From assembly GCA_024279685.1 (NCBI GenBank), contig JAJRRI010000035.1, positions 3,081 through 67,080 on the forward strand: DNA of 64,000 nt, given 5' to 3'. The first letter of the stretch is position 1. Each line of letters opens with the position of its first letter. This DNA comes from Verrucomicrobiota bacterium. Lineage in GTDB: Bacteria > Verrucomicrobiota > Kiritimatiellia > Kiritimatiellales > Pontiellaceae. Of the stretch, positions 27,966-36,319 are shown one piece after another. Made by a program: the position numbers and the translations under genes. The notes under the pieces are model-generated. The model saw only the letters and a list, made by a program, of their open reading frames with translations, did no database searches and was not told the origin of the DNA.

Positions 27966-28142
27966 TTTTAGAGAGGGTTTAATTTGAAGTATATCCTTAT
28001 AGAATTCGATTGAGATAATGTAAATTTTATCTTGTGAGAGGGCGCTGATCAGTGTATTTATGAAGGATATTCAGTGGGAAAGGATTCTCATCTGATAATT
28101 CAGGTTAAACGTTTAGTTAACTTAAGTATGGAGGAGGCAGTG

Positions 28143-30197
28143 ATGAGGAAAAACAAAGGATGCAAACTATTTACGGCGATAGTGGCTTTTGTCATGATGG
28201 CCAGTCTATCGATGGGACAGCAGGATTTTCGCTACCGGCTGAGTGGGGATTGGTTCAATTTGCGAATGTCGACAGACGATTCGGGTTGGTACGAACCCGG
28301 CACGCTAGTCCCTCTCGCACCCGGAGTAGCGGACAACGCCCGAATAAACTGGGGCGGAAATACGGTAACGCTCACCAATGGCGCGGTCGTGGTGGGGGGG
28401 ATGCAATCGGGGTGGGATTCGCCCGGAACGTTGCTGATTGGTGCGGGCGGCGACTTGAGCACCAGCTTAAGTGTGGTTACGAACAACTCGGTGATTGGAT
28501 TTAACAATGTGGGCGTGTTGACCGTCGAAACGGGCGGTTCGGCTCTGTTTCGTTCGGACTTTTTGGTGGGGCAACAAGCCTCTGGAGTTGGCACGGTAAA
28601 TATTAATGGCGGAACCATTACGGTGGACGGCGAATTTCGTGCGGGAGATTTAGGCACCGGATCAATCTTTGTGAATGAGGGCGGCACTTTGAATCTGAGT
28701 GGCTTAGCCACCAACGGAATCGATTCGATCCGCGTGGGATCCAAACTGGATATTGTCGGTACCGGCCAAGTCATTATTTCGGGCGACGCGGAAGATACCG
28801 TGAACCTATATGTGGCCAATGGAACCCTTCTGGGAAATGGCGTAAGTAATAATGTGATTGTGCAGGTGACCTTCGGCGCAGAAACGAATACCACCATTAC
28901 CGCCATCGTGGTCGTGCCTAATGTCGTGGGTAGCTTCTTGGGTTCAGCAACGAATGCGATTCAAAATTTGGGTTATGTGACTGGAACCGTTGTTGATGGC
29001 TATGAGCCAGGCGTGCTATCGGGTGCGGTCATCGGGCAGGACCCGTTAGGCGGATCGAGCGCTGCGCCTGGAACGGTTGTAAACCTGATCATTCAGGAAC
29101 CCTTTCTTCCCGTCAGCGTTCAAGAGAATACGTGGTGGGGTCCTACCAGTGGCGATTGGTTGGCTGCCACGAACTGGAGTGCCGGCGTGGCTCCCATCCG
29201 GGAAACGCAGAACTATTCGGTCAGGCTTAGATTGGGGCCGATCGTAACCTTGACTAACTCGATTCGAGTCAGTTCATTGGAAGTTGGAACGAGGGCCACA
29301 CCTGGAACTCGGTTGACGATTTCAAATGGCGGGAGCCTCATTGGCGGCGGACGGGCGAATGGAGGCACAATCCATTGCTCCTTTGGCGTCAGTGCAGAAA
29401 CGGTTGTAACGGTTCAGACGAACTCGCTCTTGCAAACGCAATCCTTTGCTATTTTGGGGCACGGTATAGGCACACCAACCGATTACACGGTCACACTAAA
29501 TATTGATGGGGGAAGTTTTATTAGTAAAGACTGGATGGGGGTCGGATACCTCTCGAAGCAGATTTGGGGAGTGATCAATGTTGATAATGGCGGATACTTC
29601 GAAGTCCTTCGCTTTCACGATGGGCGCGACGGTGCGGGGAACTCGACGAATGGCGTGATTAACCTGAACCATGGCACGATGGTCATGAATGGGAATGCGA
29701 CGAACTTCATTAATGGAGCCATCGCAAATGGGTTTATTGCACCCAACCCAGATACACCTTATACGTTGGACTATAATGTGACGACCGCGGGTAAGACGAC
29801 CTTACGCCTTATACCCGCCAGCTATACGGCGTGGGCGGAAACCTGGGGCGTGGACATTGGCTCGGAAACCGATGACTATGACAACGATCAGGCGGATAAC
29901 CTCTGGGAATACGCCGCAAACGGAAACCCCACCAATGCTCAGGATACGGGAGTCGCTCCTGTGCTGGCAAATGATGCCGGAGTGCTGACGTATACTCACC
30001 TTGTGCGCGCTGACGACCTTAATCTCGTCTACACGGTACAAACCACAGGGATACTGACGCCGGCCAATTGGGTGGATACTGGGTCGACCGTTATTGGAAC
30101 GGAGGTCAGTGGCGGCGATTATAACACGGTGACTAACCTCGTTTCACCGGTGGCCGTCGATCAATCCTTCCTGCGTGTGGAAGTCGACAATCCCTAG
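28143..30197 (+). CDS. Secreted modular protein: two autotransporter/PEP-CTERM-type passenger modules, a central PASTA domain and a C-terminal DxDxD...FLRV domain
   Basis: RBS GGAGGAGG before ATG 28143, then a signal peptide. GxLTxxxGG beta-repeats. PASTA VPNVVG..IGQDP..GTVVNL at about 28911-29102. Terminal domain from 29823. Confidence 0.75.
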   Translation: MRKNKGCKLFTAIVAFVMMASLSMGQQDFRYRLSGDWFNLRMSTDDSGWYEPGTLVPLAPGVADNARINWGGNTVTLTNGAVVVGGMQSGWDSPGTLLIGAGGDLSTSLSVVTNNSVIGFNNVGVLTVETGGSALFRSDFLVGQQASGVGTVNINGGTITVDGEFRAGDLGTGSIFVNEGGTLNLSGLATNGIDSIRVGSKLDIVGTGQVIISGDAEDTVNLYVANGTLLGNGVSNNVIVQVTFGAETNTTITAIVVVPNVVGSFLGSATNAIQNLGYVTGTVVDGYEPGVLSGAVIGQDPLGGSSAAPGTVVNLIIQEPFLPVSVQENTWWGPTSGDWLAATNWSAGVAPIRETQNYSVRLRLGPIVTLTNSIRVSSLEVGTRATPGTRLTISNGGSLIGGGRANGGTIHCSFGVSAETVVTVQTNSLLQTQSFAILGHGIGTPTDYTVTLNIDGGSFISKDWMGVGYLSKQIWGVINVDNGGYFEVLRFHDGRDGAGNSTNGVINLNHGTMVMNGNATNFINGAIANGFIAPNPDTPYTLDYNVTTAGKTTLRLIPASYTAWAETWGVDIGSETDDYDNDQADNLWEYAANGNPTNAQDTGVAPVLANDAGVLTYTHLVRADDLNLVYTVQTTGILTPANWVDTGSTVIGTEVSGGDYNTVTNLVSPVAVDQSFLRVEVDNP

Positions 30198-30211
30198 TCG
30201 GATAAAAATCA

Positions 30212-30236
30212 GAGCGGGGGGAATCTTCCCCCGCTC
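30212..30236 (+). terminator. GC-rich hairpin, probable intrinsic terminator
   Basis: GAGCGGGGG-gaatctt-CCCCCGCTC 15 nt after the stop. Weak U-tract. Confidence 0.55.
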
Positions 30237-30309
30237 CTTATACTCCGTTTTAGAAAAAATATTGTGGTGAGCGGAATAAGCCACTCACCTAAAAAAAAGG
30301 AACATACAT

Positions 30310-31242
30310 ATGAATAAAAAACTACTGATGGGACTCGTATTTTGCGGCATGGCCGTAGGTAGCGCAAATGCGCTATTTTATCGAGGTAGCGGAAATTGGA
30401 CAGATACGACACCTTCCGCTCCCGGCCCCGGCTGGCAGTCGACTGTGCCAGGCTCAACGGACACTGCCGAGCTGAGACTGGGCAATACCGTGACGCTAGG
30501 CTATGCAGCGCCCAGCGTGGCAAGCCTGCAGATCGGCCGAGGAAGAACCGGGTTTACGGATGACCGTTCCGGCACGTTGAACATTCAAAGTGGTGGAAGC
30601 GTGACCTCCTCCGGCGACATTATAGTCGGCTTGAGCGGAAACACGGCGGCCCCAGTGGCTAACTACCAAGGTACGCTTAATATTAATGCGGGTGGATTGT
30701 TAACCGGGCTCACTTCCATGCGGGTCGGCGACCAGACGGGCGACGGCCCAGACGTTGGAGTCGGTGTTGTGGTGGTAGATGGAACTCTAACTCTCGCTCA
30801 GCACTTGTGGTTTGGCCGTCTTGGCGGAATCGGTACCATGACGATCAATAACGGCGGCGTGGTAAATGTAGGCGGAGGCCTTGGTCTTGGAACTTCGAAT
30901 GGTCTGGCTCCTTCGGGCGGAACCGGCACCCTTACGGTTGAAAGCGGCGGTCTGCTGGCGTTGAACACCTGGAATAATGATGGCACGAACGCGATTCAAT
31001 CGGGATCTGTGCTGAATATTAATGGAACCGGTGTGGTGACCATAAACGGAGACCGTCTTGCTTCGGCTGATTCCTACATTGCAGCGGGAAAGATTCTTAC
31101 GGATGACGTCAGTCTTTCGGTTACGTACGATACGGTATCGGATGTTACCACGATCGTAGCCATTCCAGAACCTGCAACGCTCGGAATGGTTGCGGCCTTT
31201 GGTGGTGCTTTGATCTTCATTCGTCGCAGAATGTCCATCTAA
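30310..31242 (+). CDS. PEP-CTERM sorting-domain protein
   Basis: Signal peptide (..AVGSANA), passenger beta-repeats, C-terminal IPEPATLGMVAAFGGALIFIRRRMSI. Confidence 0.92.
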   Translation: MNKKLLMGLVFCGMAVGSANALFYRGSGNWTDTTPSAPGPGWQSTVPGSTDTAELRLGNTVTLGYAAPSVASLQIGRGRTGFTDDRSGTLNIQSGGSVTSSGDIIVGLSGNTAAPVANYQGTLNINAGGLLTGLTSMRVGDQTGDGPDVGVGVVVVDGTLTLAQHLWFGRLGGIGTMTINNGGVVNVGGGLGLGTSNGLAPSGGTGTLTVESGGLLALNTWNNDGTNAIQSGSVLNINGTGVVTINGDRLASADSYIAAGKILTDDVSLSVTYDTVSDVTTIVAIPEPATLGMVAAFGGALIFIRRRMSI

Positions 31243-31551: not shown

Positions 31552-34431
31552 ATGATGATAAATAAAAACAGAAAAATACGATTTAATCCGACGGCCTTCT
31601 TAATAAGTGCGGTTCTATTCGCTTCGGGGGGTGCGCTAAAAACAGATGCAGCGGTTCTATTGTCCGACGGGATGGATTATGCGAACGATACGACCCTTCA
31701 AAGTGCCTGGACGAGTGTCCACGGAAATGGAAATGTTAAAACTCAAACTTCGTATACGCCCGCGCCTTTGGCGGGGCAGTCGGATAGTCCGGTTTCAGGA
31801 AAGTTTATGGAACTGGACAATCAAGTGGTCTATCGGGAGTTGTCGGCCAATACCGCCGGCGACTGGAGTCTGAGTGCGAAATTACTCCATAACACGTACG
31901 GTCGGCGGCTGATTGTTTTTTTGCTGAATGAAACCGGAACGCAGGGATATGGGATGCTTTGGGACTCTGCCCAGGTGAGTAGCTCCGGCGGGGAAGGATT
32001 CTATCGAATCAGAAAATTCGATAACTCCAGCTATACCGATTGGACCACGTTTGGAAACGGAATTTCAATTCCTGGGGATTGGCCGAGCTCTCATCCGATC
32101 ACCGGATATGCCGTGACGAGTGCGCCGAGTTCAGATCAAGATACAGCGACGTATGATACTGCTTCTTGGGCCGATTTTGTTTCCCTCCGGCTGGAATGGA
32201 CAGCGGCAACCGGAACGCTTACGTTATTCGAAAATAATGTTCAGGTGGGACAGGTCGTTGATACGAGTTTTACGAATTTTAAACGTATTTATCTGAGTGG
32301 AAATACCGCTGGATTTTTTGACGATATTGAACTCAACGGTACTTTTTACATGGGGGGTTATGCGGGGTGGGCGGCAAGCTACCCTGCTCTGGTTGGGGGG
32401 GAATCGGATGACGAGGATAACGATGGCTTATCGAATTTAGAAGAATATGCGCTAGGCGGAAATCCAACGAATGCCAACGATATCGGTTATGTTCCAACCA
32501 CGGGGGTTTCGGGCGATTTCTTTGAAGTGATTCATGTGCGCCGTATCGCAGCGGCGAACGAACTGCTCTACTATTTGGAGCAGAACGAGGATCTGGTGGC
32601 TAGCCCGGGATGGGATAGAACCGGGGAATATGAGATCACGGGGATAGGCCCCTTTCCGGCTAATCCAGAATTTGAAGTCGTGACGAATCAGATTTCGATG
32701 GTGGGTAATTCGCAAGAATTTTTTCAGTTGAAGGTCAGTAATCGTTCGGATCCATTTCCTCCGCTGTTCAATACAACCACGTTTGGGGCCACCGTTCCAT
32801 TTGTCACTTTGGAAGGCGAGGATGCTGCGGCCACCAGCGGTTCTATCGTTCAGTTAGGCGCTCCGTATCCGTGGCCATCGACCCCCGCACAGGAAGCTTC
32901 TGGACGGGCGTTTGTTGAATTGGATAGTACGGGAGAATATGTTGAATTTAATGTGCCGGCCGACGCCGATGGGATGGTGATTCGCCACTGTATTCCGGAT
33001 GCGCCCGGGGGTGGGGGAATGAGCGCCACGTTGGGGCTCTATGTGAACGGAGTACGCGTTCAGGACGTGAATCTCTCGTCTAAATTTAACTGGCTCTACA
33101 TCACCGATCCCACGCCGTATTCAAACGGACAGGACAATACGCCCAATGGCTTCCCGCATGTCTTTTGGGATGAAACCCGGTTGCTTATTTCGGGCGGCGT
33201 TGTGGCGGGCGATGTAATCCGCCTCCAGAAGGATGCGGGCGATACGGCGGCCTATTACCGGATTGATTTGGTGGAGCTTGAAGAAGTTCCGCCGCCGCTG
33301 ACCCAGCCGGCCAACTCGCTTTCGATCGCCGATTATGGCGCTGACGGCTCTTCGGCCGCCAACGATACGCCTGCGATCAAAAACTGTATTGCCGCCGCGC
33401 AAGCTCAGGGGAAAACGGTTTGGTTCCCGGTTGGTACGTTTTTGCAGGATGAATATTTTACATTGACTGGAGTCAGGGTGCAGGGCGCCGGGATGTGGCA
33501 CACGACCTTGTCCGACACCGTGGGAGATGCTGGCACGAATGGGAGGGGGCATTTTGGCTTTTATCTTCAGGGGGATGGCCCTGGGGTTTCTGACATGATG
33601 CTTAATAGTTTGGAAAATACACGCCGCCAGGGGAACTCTCCAAGACCGCTTTTTGGACGGTCAAATAATTGGGCCGTCGAACGGGTGTGGATCACGCATA
33701 CGGCATACGGCATGTGGCTGGCCGGGAACAATGGCGTGGTTCGAGACTGCCGCGTTCGGTTTACCTATGCGGATGGCATTAATGTGAATGACGGCAGTGC
33801 ACATGAGTTGAACAATGTGCTGGTCGAAAATAACCATGTGCGCGGAACGGGTGACGATGGCATTGCGGTACTGGCTCACATGTCTTCCCCCGGGAAGGTC
33901 AGCCAGATTACGGTGCGCCATAATACGGTGATCGCTCCCTATTGGGCGGCCAATCTGGATATGACGGGGGGAACGGATATTCTGATGCATAATAATGTCC
34001 TCGCGGACGGCGGTGGGTTTGTAGTGAATCTACCCAGTGCATACGGAATGGAACCGCTGGACAATGCGCTCTTTACCTATAATAAAATTATGCGGTGCGG
34101 TTATATTTCTGGGGGAGGGGGGCAGCGGCGCGGGGCCATTTGGATTCTTCCAAATACGTCTTCACTCAGTGATTTTCGGATCGAAAACAACGTGGTGGAA
34201 GACGCCCTCTACCATGGGATTGAAATTGTGGGAACTCAGTTCCAGGAGATCCTCTTTAAAAATAATACCATTAACAATAGCGGCCGCAAGGCGGTTTCGA
34301 TTGGCTCGTCGGCAAATGGAATAGGCACGTTCGAGGACAACGTATCCACGGGATCCAGTGAGTTGCCGTACTTCGATAATAATTCAGGAACCTACACCGT
34401 CGTGGATGACGGTAGTAATAGCTGGAACTGA
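31552..34431 (+). CDS. Secreted multidomain GH87-like (alpha-1,3-glucanase/mycodextranase-type) beta-helix glycoside hydrolase with an N-terminal beta-sandwich and an internal DxDxD...FFQL domain
   Basis: Signal peptide. GATVPFVTLEGED, QEASGRAFVEL, VIRHCIPD, GAGMWHT, YADGIN and RGTGDDGIA match GH87 catalytic modules as recalled. Internal domain at 32359-32739. Confidence 0.78.
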   Translation: MMINKNRKIRFNPTAFLISAVLFASGGALKTDAAVLLSDGMDYANDTTLQSAWTSVHGNGNVKTQTSYTPAPLAGQSDSPVSGKFMELDNQVVYRELSANTAGDWSLSAKLLHNTYGRRLIVFLLNETGTQGYGMLWDSAQVSSSGGEGFYRIRKFDNSSYTDWTTFGNGISIPGDWPSSHPITGYAVTSAPSSDQDTATYDTASWADFVSLRLEWTAATGTLTLFENNVQVGQVVDTSFTNFKRIYLSGNTAGFFDDIELNGTFYMGGYAGWAASYPALVGGESDDEDNDGLSNLEEYALGGNPTNANDIGYVPTTGVSGDFFEVIHVRRIAAANELLYYLEQNEDLVASPGWDRTGEYEITGIGPFPANPEFEVVTNQISMVGNSQEFFQLKVSNRSDPFPPLFNTTTFGATVPFVTLEGEDAAATSGSIVQLGAPYPWPSTPAQEASGRAFVELDSTGEYVEFNVPADADGMVIRHCIPDAPGGGGMSATLGLYVNGVRVQDVNLSSKFNWLYITDPTPYSNGQDNTPNGFPHVFWDETRLLISGGVVAGDVIRLQKDAGDTAAYYRIDLVELEEVPPPLTQPANSLSIADYGADGSSAANDTPAIKNCIAAAQAQGKTVWFPVGTFLQDEYFTLTGVRVQGAGMWHTTLSDTVGDAGTNGRGHFGFYLQGDGPGVSDMMLNSLENTRRQGNSPRPLFGRSNNWAVERVWITHTAYGMWLAGNNGVVRDCRVRFTYADGINVNDGSAHELNNVLVENNHVRGTGDDGIAVLAHMSSPGKVSQITVRHNTVIAPYWAANLDMTGGTDILMHNNVLADGGGFVVNLPSAYGMEPLDNALFTYNKIMRCGYISGGGGQRRGAIWILPNTSSLSDFRIENNVVEDALYHGIEIVGTQFQEILFKNNTINNSGRKAVSIGSSANGIGTFEDNVSTGSSELPYFDNNSGTYTVVDDGSNSWN

Positions 34432-34516: not shown

Positions 34517-36319
34517 ATGAAAATCGATTTTAGGTTTAGTGTGGCGGTTCTTACCCTGGCGATAGGGGGCGGGGTTTCCCCGGTGGAAGCGGGGGTTGCG
34601 ACGTTGACGAAGGACCGGGTCGCTGAGGGTAAAGTTTGGGTGCCCCGGGCGTTAGTGAATACGAATGTTTTTGGGGCAACGGTTCCATTTGTCACACTCG
34701 AAGGTGAGGATGGTTCTTCAAATGGCTCGGTGGTTCAGCTGGGGACGCCTTTTCCTTGGCCGTCCGTTCCTGCTCAGGAGGCTTCAGGTCGTGCGTTTGT
34801 TGAATTAGAAAACACGGGCGAATACGTGGAGTTTAAGGTGTCTGATAAAGCGAATACCTTGGTGATTCGCCACTGCATCCCTGATGCCTCCGAGGGCGGG
34901 GGCATTACGGCCTCGCTGGGATTGTATATAAATGGAACCCGCGTGCAAAACCTCAGTCTCTCCTCCAAATTTAACTGGGTGTATATTACGAATCCGAGGC
35001 CGTATTCAAATGGGCATGACAATACGCCGAATGGCTTCCCGCATATGTTTTGGGATGAAACGCGATTTTTCCTCTCGCAGGAGGTGAAAGCGGGCGACGT
35101 AATTCGCCTCCAAAAAGATGCGGATGATACGGCGGCATACTATCGCATTGATTTGATAGAGCTCGAAGACGTTGCGCCAGCCCTCCAACAACCTGAAGGG
35201 TCTTTGTCGATTGTTGATTATGGCGCCACCGGGCAGTCGGCGGATATCGATACCCCCGCGATTAAGAAGTGTATTGCGGCGGCAAAAGCGGAAGGTAAAA
35301 CGGTTTGGTTTCCGGCCGGTACGTATTTTCAAAATGAATATTTTGTATTGGACGGAGTCAAGGTGCAGGGCGCCGGGATGTGGCACACCACGTTGTCCGA
35401 TGTCGTGGGCAATGCCGCGACGGGCTGGAAGGCGAACTCTGGGTTTTGGTTTGGTGGTGTTGGACCGAGTGTTTCTGACCTAACGTTTAATAGTATCGCC
35501 AATACCCGCCGTCATCTAGGGGCTCCAAAGTCATTCTTCGGAAACTCACGAGATTGGTCGGTTGAACGGGTTTGGGTAACGCATACCGGAACCGGCATGT
35601 GGCTCGCAGGGCAGAACGGGGTTATTCGAGATTGCCGGATCCGCTTCACCTACGCTGACGGGATTAACGTGAATAACGGAAATACTTTTTATTCGGTCGA
35701 TAATGTGTTGGTCGAAAATAACCATGTGCGCGGAGCGGGCGATGATAGCATTGCGATTTTAGCTCATGGAGACTCGACCGGCGGCGTTTCCCGAGTCACG
35801 GTTCGCCATAACACCGTGGTGGCCGATTGGTGGGGAGCGAGTTTGGATATGACGGGCGGGAATGACCATCTCGTTCATAACAATCTAATTTTAGATGGAG
35901 GTGGATTTGTGATCAATCTGCCTGGAGCTTATCCGATGATCGCGTTGAGCGATAGTCTCTTTGCTTATAATAAGATTATACGCTGTGGAAAACGGTATGG
36001 AACGACGTCGGCCTTGGAGCGCGGGGCTCTTTGGGTTTTTCCATCGACGGCGGGGATTCAGAATTTAAGAATCGAGAATAACTGGATTGAAGATTCCTTT
36101 TATCACGGGATTCATGTGACTGGAGATGAACCTCAAGAGATTTACTTTAAGAATAATAAAATTGGACGGAGTGGTCGGGAAGCGGTCTTTATCTCTTCCT
36201 CAGCCGTCGGGACGGGAACGTTTGAAGGCAATGTATCCAGAGAATCTGGAGCCGCCTCGCCCCTGGTAAACCGCTCCAAAAAGTATAAAGTGACCGACCT
36301 AAATAACGATTGGGAGTAA
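34517..36319 (+). CDS. Secreted GH87-like glycoside hydrolase, paralog of the preceding catalytic module
   Basis: Signal peptide from ATG 34517. Same motifs: GATVPFVTLEGED, QEASGRAFVEL, YADGIN, RGAGDDSIA. Near-identical DNTPNGFPH.FWDETR segment. Confidence 0.8.
   Translation: MKIDFRFSVAVLTLAIGGGVSPVEAGVATLTKDRVAEGKVWVPRALVNTNVFGATVPFVTLEGEDGSSNGSVVQLGTPFPWPSVPAQEASGRAFVELENTGEYVEFKVSDKANTLVIRHCIPDASEGGGITASLGLYINGTRVQNLSLSSKFNWVYITNPRPYSNGHDNTPNGFPHMFWDETRFFLSQEVKAGDVIRLQKDADDTAAYYRIDLIELEDVAPALQQPEGSLSIVDYGATGQSADIDTPAIKKCIAAAKAEGKTVWFPAGTYFQNEYFVLDGVKVQGAGMWHTTLSDVVGNAATGWKANSGFWFGGVGPSVSDLTFNSIANTRRHLGAPKSFFGNSRDWSVERVWVTHTGTGMWLAGQNGVIRDCRIRFTYADGINVNNGNTFYSVDNVLVENNHVRGAGDDSIAILAHGDSTGGVSRVTVRHNTVVADWWGASLDMTGGNDHLVHNNLILDGGGFVINLPGAYPMIALSDSLFAYNKIIRCGKRYGTTSALERGALWVFPSTAGIQNLRIENNWIEDSFYHGIHVTGDEPQEIYFKNNKIGRSGREAVFISSSAVGTGTFEGNVSRESGAASPLVNRSKKYKVTDLNNDWE

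Follow-up and report, generated by a model that had tools for sequence, protein, structure and literature searches.

A C-terminal domain family apparently exchanged with PEP-CTERM on paralogous exported proteins of Verrucomicrobiota

A 64,000-nucleotide stretch of a Pontiellaceae genome (the window) encodes a protein, P1, whose last 124 residues belong to a real, autonomously folding domain family (hereafter CTD) absent from the Pfam-A, NCBIfam and PDB sequences searched. In Kiritimatiellales and further Verrucomicrobiota, CTD serves as a modular end-piece of Sec-exported proteins whose bodies differ widely, and sequence comparison shows that on paralogous passengers CTD and PEP-CTERM are exchanged for each other as cassettes. 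CTD probably offers these bacteria a second means of positioning proteins on the cell surface.

P1 (28143-30197; all features described here are on the plus strand) is a 684-residue protein composed of a signal peptide predicted from the translation (28143..28220, beginning MRKNKGCKLFTAIVAFVMMASLSMG...), a passenger module (module A, 28215..28910, residues ~25-256), a PASTA domain (28908..29093, residues 256-317), a diverged copy of the module (module B, 29118..29822, residues ~326-560) and CTD (29823..30194). An alternative GTG start at 28074 is less likely, as it would add a non-signal leader. Module A contains beta-helix-like GxLxI..GG repeats and terminates in VTF....TTITAI, module B terminates in ...TTLRLIPAS, and the segment that separates them was recognized by the Pfam PASTA model PF03793 (E=2.2e-7, 31.2 bits vs a cut-off of 23.2, model positions 1-62 of 64). 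P2 (30310-31242) carries a signal peptide and one passenger module homologous to module A (30310..31158), followed by a PEP-CTERM tail (31159..31239). The proposal of the earlier note that P2 and both halves of P1 share one module was borne out by BLASTP for module A and P2 (E=5e-13; E=4e-15 in the hhalign comparison of their profiles) and at the profile level for module B, which gave no significant BLASTP match to module A or P2 and aligned to their joint profile over 199 columns (hhalign, probability 96%, E=4.7e-9). A paralogue of P2 (C27_4960_5844) was found in a duplicated cluster on another contig.

PEP-CTERM is processed by exosortase. The P2 tail, IPEPATLGMVAAFGGALIFIRRRMSI, displays by sequence reading the PEP motif, TM helix and basic cluster (IPEP-TM-RRR) and scores slightly under the curated cut-offs of PF07589 (16.6 vs 20.7 bits) and TIGR02595 (14.5 vs 16). 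An exosortase (PF09721, E=1.5e-52) is encoded in the same genome at C131:4761-5507, PF09721 and TIGR02595 being families of the PEP-CTERM/exosortase system (Haft 2006, PMC1569441). In contrast to this tail of ~25 residues, CTD is a soluble folded domain of about 125 residues; neither a TM-length hydrophobic stretch, as already stated in the earlier note, nor a PEP motif or basic tail occurs in its 124 residues in P1, and for this reason it is unlikely to be an exosortase substrate.

The CTD of P1 ends in FLRVEVDNP immediately before the stop codon. Its structure, predicted by AF2 from a 57-sequence alignment (pLDDT 94.1), is a six-strand Ig-like beta-sandwich; its cap consists of two short helices joined by a canonical EF-hand-type Ca loop. 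An earlier model built from 10 sequences was dropped, with a pLDDT of just 66. The single EF-hand loop reads D18-x-D20-x-D22-x-x-x-N26-x-x-E29, and the ligands D20, D22, N26 and E29 are invariant or near-invariant in the family alignment, in which the mean column identity is 44% and the conserved positions are largely hydrophobic or aromatic residues together with the Ca ligands. Considering the Sec signal peptides located upstream, CTD is presumably extracytoplasmic.

Pfam and NCBIfam scans that covered the proteins of the window and 57 CTD sequences assigned CTD to no family, and a profile search of the PDB gave no sequence match; the domain is distinct and uncatalogued. The scans with CTD returned only weak matches to TSP3-like or Amuc_1099 motifs. 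The best 50 Foldseek matches to the confident model were Ig domains of the MHC/cytokine-receptor type with TM<=0.43, none of them a specific neighbour; Foldseek gave no lectin neighbour, and no carbohydrate-binding module (CBM) was matched in Pfam, PDB sequences or the Foldseek best 50. A word-indexed homologue search with the CTD region recovered five proteins with uninformative names, the NCBI/UniRef names of Pontiella proteins carrying CTD refer to the passenger alone, and no description of CTD was found in the literature searched. As a whole, the domain thus matches no characterized carbohydrate- or Ca-binding module, although it does contain an EF-hand/TSP3-like Ca loop. The bacterial TSP3 repeat (PF18884) and thrombospondin type 3 share with CTD the Ca-binding motif DxDxDGxxNxxE, but have neither a helix before the motif nor a beta-sandwich after it; PF18884 scored 14.1-18.3 bits in CTD (threshold 25 bits) over ~22 residues, and only one of the 57 sequences matched at E<=0.1.

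The family is large (12,437 clusters at E<=1e-3, falling to 2,105 at the stricter E<=1e-10) and its location is nearly constant. Around 97% of the full-length matches are flush with the C-terminus: among loci from other genomes 96 of 99 lie within 6 residues of the stop, and among the best 150 representatives the domain is C-terminal in 141 of 144. Most full-length members have signal peptides, in agreement with the predicted enrichment of this domain at the C-termini of exported proteins. Furthermore, the last strand carries the motif F-x-R-L, and 136 of 138 chains end 7-10 residues past its F. Sorting signals show such a terminal position together with a tightly fixed chain end more typically than binding modules do. 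The passengers are varied and include BNR_4, CBM96, pectate-lyase-like and cadherin-like proteins, esterases, FGE-sulfatase, PA14 and peptidase S9.

The claim that CTD and PEP-CTERM are interchangeable on homologous passengers gained support from at least 10 gene pairs in other genomes and from 3-4 loci in this genome, where adjacent paralogues with swapped tails also occur. The same-strand pairs elsewhere (L030, L032, L036, L042, L043, L061, L071, L078 twice, and L079) are separated by 6-376 bp, with the exception of the second L078 pair (1.5 kb), and share passengers that align over 180-668 residues with 41-81% identity. In most of them the homology ends at the last passenger strand, from which one protein continues into (V/I)PEP-TM-RR and the other into a short linker and Y/FxxW...CTD. 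In this genome five CTD genes have a PEP-CTERM gene at a distance of 310 bp or less, vs ~0.25 expected. Both end-pieces occur at an identical position of shared passengers in the same genomes, have expanded by paralogy and are found on signal-peptide proteins with few known domains. An analogous situation is that of Haft's "choice-of-anchor" domains and TIGR04393, in which one passenger family bears alternative C-terminal export or anchoring devices; however, there the variants are orthologues from species that differ in their sorting system, whereas the present cases are tandem paralogues in one genome and the alternative device is a folded domain new to the databases searched.

With regard to genome distribution, exosortase was detected in 125/125 CTD-positive vs 96/176 CTD-negative genomes in a set of 301 Verrucomicrobiota (a count that ignores kinship). 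The exclusive presence of CTD in exosortase-positive genomes ties it to an exosortase/exopolysaccharide context rather than to an independent system. The earlier note had also postulated a dedicated export or attachment machinery. This prediction was not supported: no candidate emerged, and clustering of 425 ORFs from 79 loci revealed no conserved partner or receptor gene beside the CTD genes. The recurring neighbours were glycan-utilization genes (GH2, rhamnosidase, MFS, BNR), and the small PEP-CTERM proteins that adjoin CTD genes were heterogeneous and formed no receptor family. SprA (TIGR04189) was matched in 0/8 genomes of the genus, in a comparison whose control set had no positive genome.

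A second copy of CTD (32359-32739; 35% identical to that of P1, E=4e-21) sits inside P3 and not at its end, a point that the earlier note omitted. P3 (31552-34431) contains an N-terminal domain, CTD and a GH87-like beta-helix of the alpha-1,3-glucanase type, with CatAgl_D1/D2 downstream of CTD. The unfused comparator is P4 (34502..36319), a GH87-like module with its own signal peptide and without CTD (CatAgl_D1 1.8e-43, CatAgl_D2 1.2e-17), whose mature N-terminus, ...FGATVPFVTLEGED, corresponds to the P3 segment directly after the internal CTD. The P3 layout of N-domain, CTD and beta-helix recurs in L076 and L023. The internal CTDs of three GH87-type paralogues, copies that stem from a few related fusions, are 70-74% identical vs 59-77% for the catalytic domains; being conserved to a similar degree as these, they argue against a purely disposable terminal signal. 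This conservation may reflect structural constraint alone.

Altogether, that part of the earlier proposal which described a distinct terminal domain swapped with PEP-CTERM stands, and its designation as a dedicated surface-targeting or secretion signal is only partly supported, considering that the machinery was not found and that internal copies are conserved. A module for binding or retention accounts for the exosortase-only distribution and the conserved internal copies no less well than does a cleaved export signal of the T9SS type. It is tentatively predicted, at a confidence somewhat short of even, that CTD is a Ca2+-dependent, non-covalent end-module that binds to the surface or matrix. 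The domain would determine the final location of its passenger and would retain it by binding a cell-surface or exopolymer-matrix glycan, or possibly a substrate glycan, and a tandem pair would provide two forms of one passenger, the PEP-CTERM form processed by exosortase and the CTD form retained. The high conservation of CTD, compared with the 7-19% pairwise identity of T9SS CTDs (PMC11285876), favors a binding module over a disposable signal, and the absence of a conserved machinery gene beside the CTD genes was counted in the same direction; the lack of a CBM or lectin neighbour in Foldseek counts against it. That CTD is cleaved off as a disposable export signal is less likely.

The closest competitor of this binding module, although on balance rather unlikely, is the reading of the earlier note, that CTD is the cargo tag of a novel, dedicated pathway for translocation or attachment at the outer membrane, in which the sandwich would be recognized in the folded state, as in T9SS, and then possibly removed or covalently attached. 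Like CTD as modelled, the T9SS CTD of Bacteroidota (Por_Secre_tail, TIGR04183/PF18962) is a folded, TM-less Ig-like sandwich; it is placed at the very end of many unrelated Sec-exported proteins, is present in multiple copies per genome and has a conserved last strand and chain end. It differs in the phylum, in its seven (3+4) strands vs six predicted and in its much lower sequence conservation, and CTD adds an N-terminal helix-EF-hand loop-helix cap and has internal copies; none of 57 CTD sequences matched Por_Secre_tail at E<=0.1 in Pfam and NCBIfam, and no T9SS CTD structure was among the Foldseek best 50. The cargo tag would agree with the terminal position and fixed chain end, with the precise exchange for an established sorting signal, and with a distribution in which CTD is multi-copy in positive genomes (copies counted to at most 14 per genome) and missing in 176 of the 301. 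In addition, the passenger repeat resembles TIGR04393, annotated in NCBIfam as T5SS/PEP-CTERM-associated, with scores under the 23-bit cut-off (17.4 bits in P1 and 19.6 bits in P2), and the 4-7 secretin genes per genome found in the genus could serve specialized export. Against it stand the lack of candidate machinery and of any conserved neighbour gene, the constraint on internal copies, a conservation far above that of T9SS CTDs and the confinement to exosortase-positive genomes. In its broader form, that of a second surface-sorting route parallel to exosortase in Verrucomicrobiota including Kiritimatiellales, with the Ca-capped terminal sandwich as cargo tag and a novel receptor, translocon or processing enzyme that would recognize it, the proposal is doubtful; the enzyme of such a route might be one of the many secretin-based systems or be connected with the export of exopolysaccharide.

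Dockerins (types I-III, cellulosomes) act by non-covalent docking. They resemble CTD in that a helix comes after an EF-hand-type Ca loop of 12 residues and in their usually C-terminal position on secreted carbohydrate-active enzymes. By analogy, CTD could be a protein-protein plug whose partner is a receptor protein of the cell, such as the adjoining PEP-CTERM-anchored protein, or a homologous passenger (homotypic binding). CTD shares the single loop with the helix that follows and the C-terminal location on enzymes, a small PEP-CTERM gene very often lies directly before or after the CTD gene, and in L030 and L032 the arrangement of [module-module-CTD] and [module-PEP-CTERM] recurs on the basis of a module unrelated to that of P1 and P2. 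Nevertheless, dockerins are all-alpha domains of ~70 residues with two F-hand repeats, unlike the one loop plus beta-sandwich of CTD; CTDs gave no HMM match to PF00404, Pfam Cohesin (PF00963) was missing in 8/8 genomes of the genus, the adjoining PEP-CTERM proteins are heterogeneous and about half of the gene pairs are plain passenger paralogues, which makes a plug improbable. Equally improbable is a generic Ca-stabilized cap or folding aid devoid of any localization role, with a terminal bias due to easy shuffling of 3'-cassettes alone: an Ig-like fold without a specific structural neighbour, a conservation pattern that may be mainly structural and the tolerance of internal positions are compatible with it, but it leaves unexplained why CTD and PEP-CTERM have repeatedly replaced each other at one junction, why CTD is confined to exosortase-positive genomes and why N-terminal or middle CTDs are nearly absent across hundreds of architectures.

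Kiritimatiellales, like other Verrucomicrobiota, play a major part in the degradation of sulfated and algal polysaccharides. The apparent exchange of CTD with PEP-CTERM offers a handle on how Verrucomicrobiota place hundreds of enzymes and adhesins outside their double membrane. A database model for the CTD family would give thousands of "hypothetical" proteins an informative annotation. The tandem pairs, with the same passenger and a different tail, constitute natural experiments and, if a second route exists, these paralogues would be natural two-route versions of one passenger.

The four genes considered in the window, P1 to P4, share the same orientation. P1 (28143-30197; 684 aa from the ATG) encodes a signal peptide, a beta-helix-like passenger copy (module A), a PASTA domain, a second passenger copy (module B) and a 124-aa C-terminal domain (CTD; 29823-30194) devoid of a TM helix, and P2 (30310-31242; 310 aa) a signal peptide, a single module and an IPEP-TM-RRR tail. 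This tail scored slightly under the cut-offs of the PEP-CTERM HMMs, with the motif plainly visible in the sequence. Module A was related to the P2 module by BLASTP (5e-13) and by profile comparison (4e-15); module B gave no significant match to either with BLASTP or phmmer, and aligned with the A+P2 profile by hhalign with a probability of 96% (E=4.7e-9, 199 columns), a figure to be read with caution since the repeats are compositionally simple. On these comparisons the motif-level description of three passenger modules in the earlier note was correct. The PASTA domain (aa 256-317; 28908-29093) exceeded the Pfam threshold (E=2.2e-7) and is bona fide, flanked by two beta-helix-like modules in a signal-peptide protein of a diderm; PASTA domains are typical of PBPs and PknB-type kinases, and occur on 2 of 64 other CTD proteins. 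The 112-bp P1-P2 spacer contains two GC-rich hairpins (30211-30237 and 30266-30289), and a terminator-like hairpin with a T-run lies 3' of P2 (31278-31303). P1 and P2 may be separate transcription units, as reported for PEP-CTERM genes by Haft 2006.

The TM-less CTD, claimed previously as a distinct module, was absent from the catalogues searched. Scans of the window proteins and 57 CTD members against Pfam-A and NCBIfam returned only sub-threshold TSP3_bac and motif-level Amuc_1099 matches, a profile search of PDB sequences found no match, NCBI/UniRef names of Pontiella members referred to the passenger or read 'hypothetical' and never named the CTD, and full-text literature searches yielded no account of it. 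The AF2 model built from the 57-sequence alignment (pLDDT 94.1, pTM 0.85) comprises, in order, a helix (2-6), a 12-residue loop, a second helix (26-31) and a set of six beta-strands. Compared with the PDB by Foldseek, it had no match at E<=1e-3; the best were generic Ig domains (TM<=0.43), and the top 50 included neither a CBM nor a T9SS CTD.

Searching 1.84 billion representative proteins with a profile of 10 copies revealed a large family: 12,437 clusters reached E<=1e-3, of which 2,105 passed E<=1e-10 and 103 passed E<=1e-30. Among the best 150 representatives (135 to 1,829 aa long), 141 of 144 full-length matches were C-terminal, 139 of them ending at most one residue from the chain end, and in 79 loci from named genomes 96/99 stopped within 6 aa of it, which confirms enrichment at C-termini. 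The consensus ends ...VTNRvsT...FIRLiIE followed by the stop, and the chain terminates 7-10 residues beyond the F of the final F-x-R-L strand in 136/138. A crude signal-peptide test was passed by 90 of the 141 C-terminal representatives; those failing are short and probably correspond to truncated gene calls. Passengers are highly varied, many without any Pfam domain, others with BNR_4, CBM96, pectate-lyase-like, cadherin-like, GDSL and other esterase, FGE-sulfatase, PA14, peptidase S9 or PASTA domains, and the flanking genes relate to glycan utilisation (GH2, rhamnosidase, MFS transporter, BNR). Named matches belong chiefly to Kiritimatiellales (Pontiella, Tichowtungia, Pontiellaceae), plus some other Verrucomicrobiota. 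One 35-kb contig with three CTD genes binned as 'Chromatiaceae' (JBGSUY010000551.1; loci L037, L041 and L045) is probably a mis-binned Kiritimatiellales contig; the Pontiella MAG JTS-AC199 shares its isolate-name prefix.

Iterated HMM searches of the genome to which the window belongs (2.69 Mb, 178 contigs) identified about 10 close full-length copies, 7 of which stop 3-4 residues short of the chain end, the remaining 3 being internal in three GH87-type paralogues. P3 (31552-34431) has this layout, with an N-terminal domain, a CTD copy (32359-32739; 35% identity to that of P1, E=4e-21) and a GH87-like alpha-1,3-glucanase-type beta-helix (CatAgl_D1/D2), and P4 (34502-36319) is a lone beta-helix with its own signal peptide. 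P3 looks like an [N-domain-CTD] gene fused to a P4-like glycanase minus its signal peptide, because the segment past the CTD (...LFNTTTFGATVPFVTLEGED; 32740-32800) matches the P4 mature N-terminus (...VNTNVFGATVPFVTLEGED; 34560-34680); the fusion is represented by three paralogues, on contigs C38, C17 and C27. A more distant C-terminal subfamily (G-x-P-x-x-W-E...D-x-D-G-D...E-Y-x-A-G-T-D-P...GRLY.VE...FYRI/L), ending in FYR(I/L), forms the tail of large pectate-lyase-like proteins (C139:684-4304, C166:44-2833, C109:2828-4015, C176:31283-32884 and C31:30598-31191).

The association with PEP-CTERM extends well past the window. The 79 loci contain 22 PEP-CTERM ORFs, 16 of them within 400 bp of a same-strand CTD gene, and pairs with passengers 41-81% identical over 180-668 aa were found at L030, L032, L036, L042, L043, L061, L071, L078 (twice) and L079. 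In most pairs the local alignment ends at, or a few residues from, the last passenger strand, beyond which one partner continues into (V/I)PEP-TM-RR and the other into a short linker and Y/FxxW...CTD. Two loci (L030:425-3016 and L032:4501-10107) repeat the window's layout, [module-module-CTD] beside [module-PEP-CTERM], with an unrelated module (GYTVGSGLL...VSVAGxV), suggesting that the arrangement itself is under selection. In the window's own genome 5 CTD genes have a PEP-CTERM gene no more than 310 bp away, where about 0.25 would be expected (rough Poisson P ~1e-4); the P1-P2-P3 order is repeated in a duplicated cluster on C27, and further adjacent pairs occur on C139 and C124. At C25:24911-26170 the passenger end ...GKTTVWA runs directly into a CTD cut by the contig end, and its relatives (C139:4394-5443 and C109:44-301) end in ...GQTTVWATVIPEP-TM-RR, swapped at the identical junction. 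The claim of one passenger with two anchors was thus borne out by paralogous passengers bearing either tail, and, since swapped pairs recur in many loci of other genomes and in this one, the swap is a general and recurrent evolutionary pattern.

An exosortase gene is present on contig C131 of the same genome (E=1.5e-52). In an even sample of Verrucomicrobiota the CTD occurred in 125/301 genomes and 75/148 genera, mostly in several copies (a count of 14 standing for at least 14), and exosortase (PF09721) in 221/301: all 125 CTD-positive genomes versus 96/176 CTD-negative ones (Fisher P = 1e-23, a value that ignores kinship, so that the independent support is weaker). Among the 301 genomes none was CTD-positive and exosortase-negative.

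The best reading, a tentative one, is that the CTD would act as a Ca2+-dependent binding or retention module. Loop positions 1, 3, 5, 9 and 12 (D18, D20, D22, N26 and E29) have the canonical EF-hand/dockerin spacing; across the 57 aligned sequences all of these but D18 vary hardly or not at all, and D18 is near-invariant among the 10 own-genome copies. A less probable reading makes the CTD the tag of a dedicated sorting pathway, favoured by the extreme positional bias and fixed chain end, the multi-copy, patchy spread, the exchange with PEP-CTERM, itself an established sorting signal, and a passenger resembling, at sub-threshold scores only, the TIGR04393 repeat, described in NCBIfam as a companion of T5SS and PEP-CTERM proteins. 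Three results speak against an export signal of the disposable, T9SS-like kind: the internal copies (70-74% identical to each other) match the catalytic domains (59-77%) in conservation and exceed the N-domain (58-67%), their layout is found again at L076 and L023 in other genomes, and the family is much better conserved than T9SS CTDs, with 7-19% pairwise identity (PMC11285876). SprA had no match in the genus in a search run without a positive control. Secretin genes (PF00263) number 4-7 in every genome of the genus (here C72:21738-22232, C132:3147-3674, C98:10215-10736, C20 and C95), many for genomes of 2.5-8.7 Mb, which points to several outer-membrane channels of a T2SS- or T4P-like kind and makes secretin-based export of CTD proteins possible. 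Dockerin-like protein docking, to which the loop spacing would also conform, is improbable, cohesin being absent from the genus, and a purely structural cap is equally improbable.

Altogether, the earlier observation was confirmed and extended to a family, its loci and the swap. Its interpretation stood in part: the CTD is a real terminal module, without an entry in the databases searched and found in alternation with PEP-CTERM, and for the new secretion or attachment machine also proposed no linked candidate gene was found among the neighbours in CTD loci. The generality of the anchor swap is the main new result, and under Ca2+-dependent retention the CTD-tailed passenger would represent a non-covalently held form beside the exosortase-processed one.
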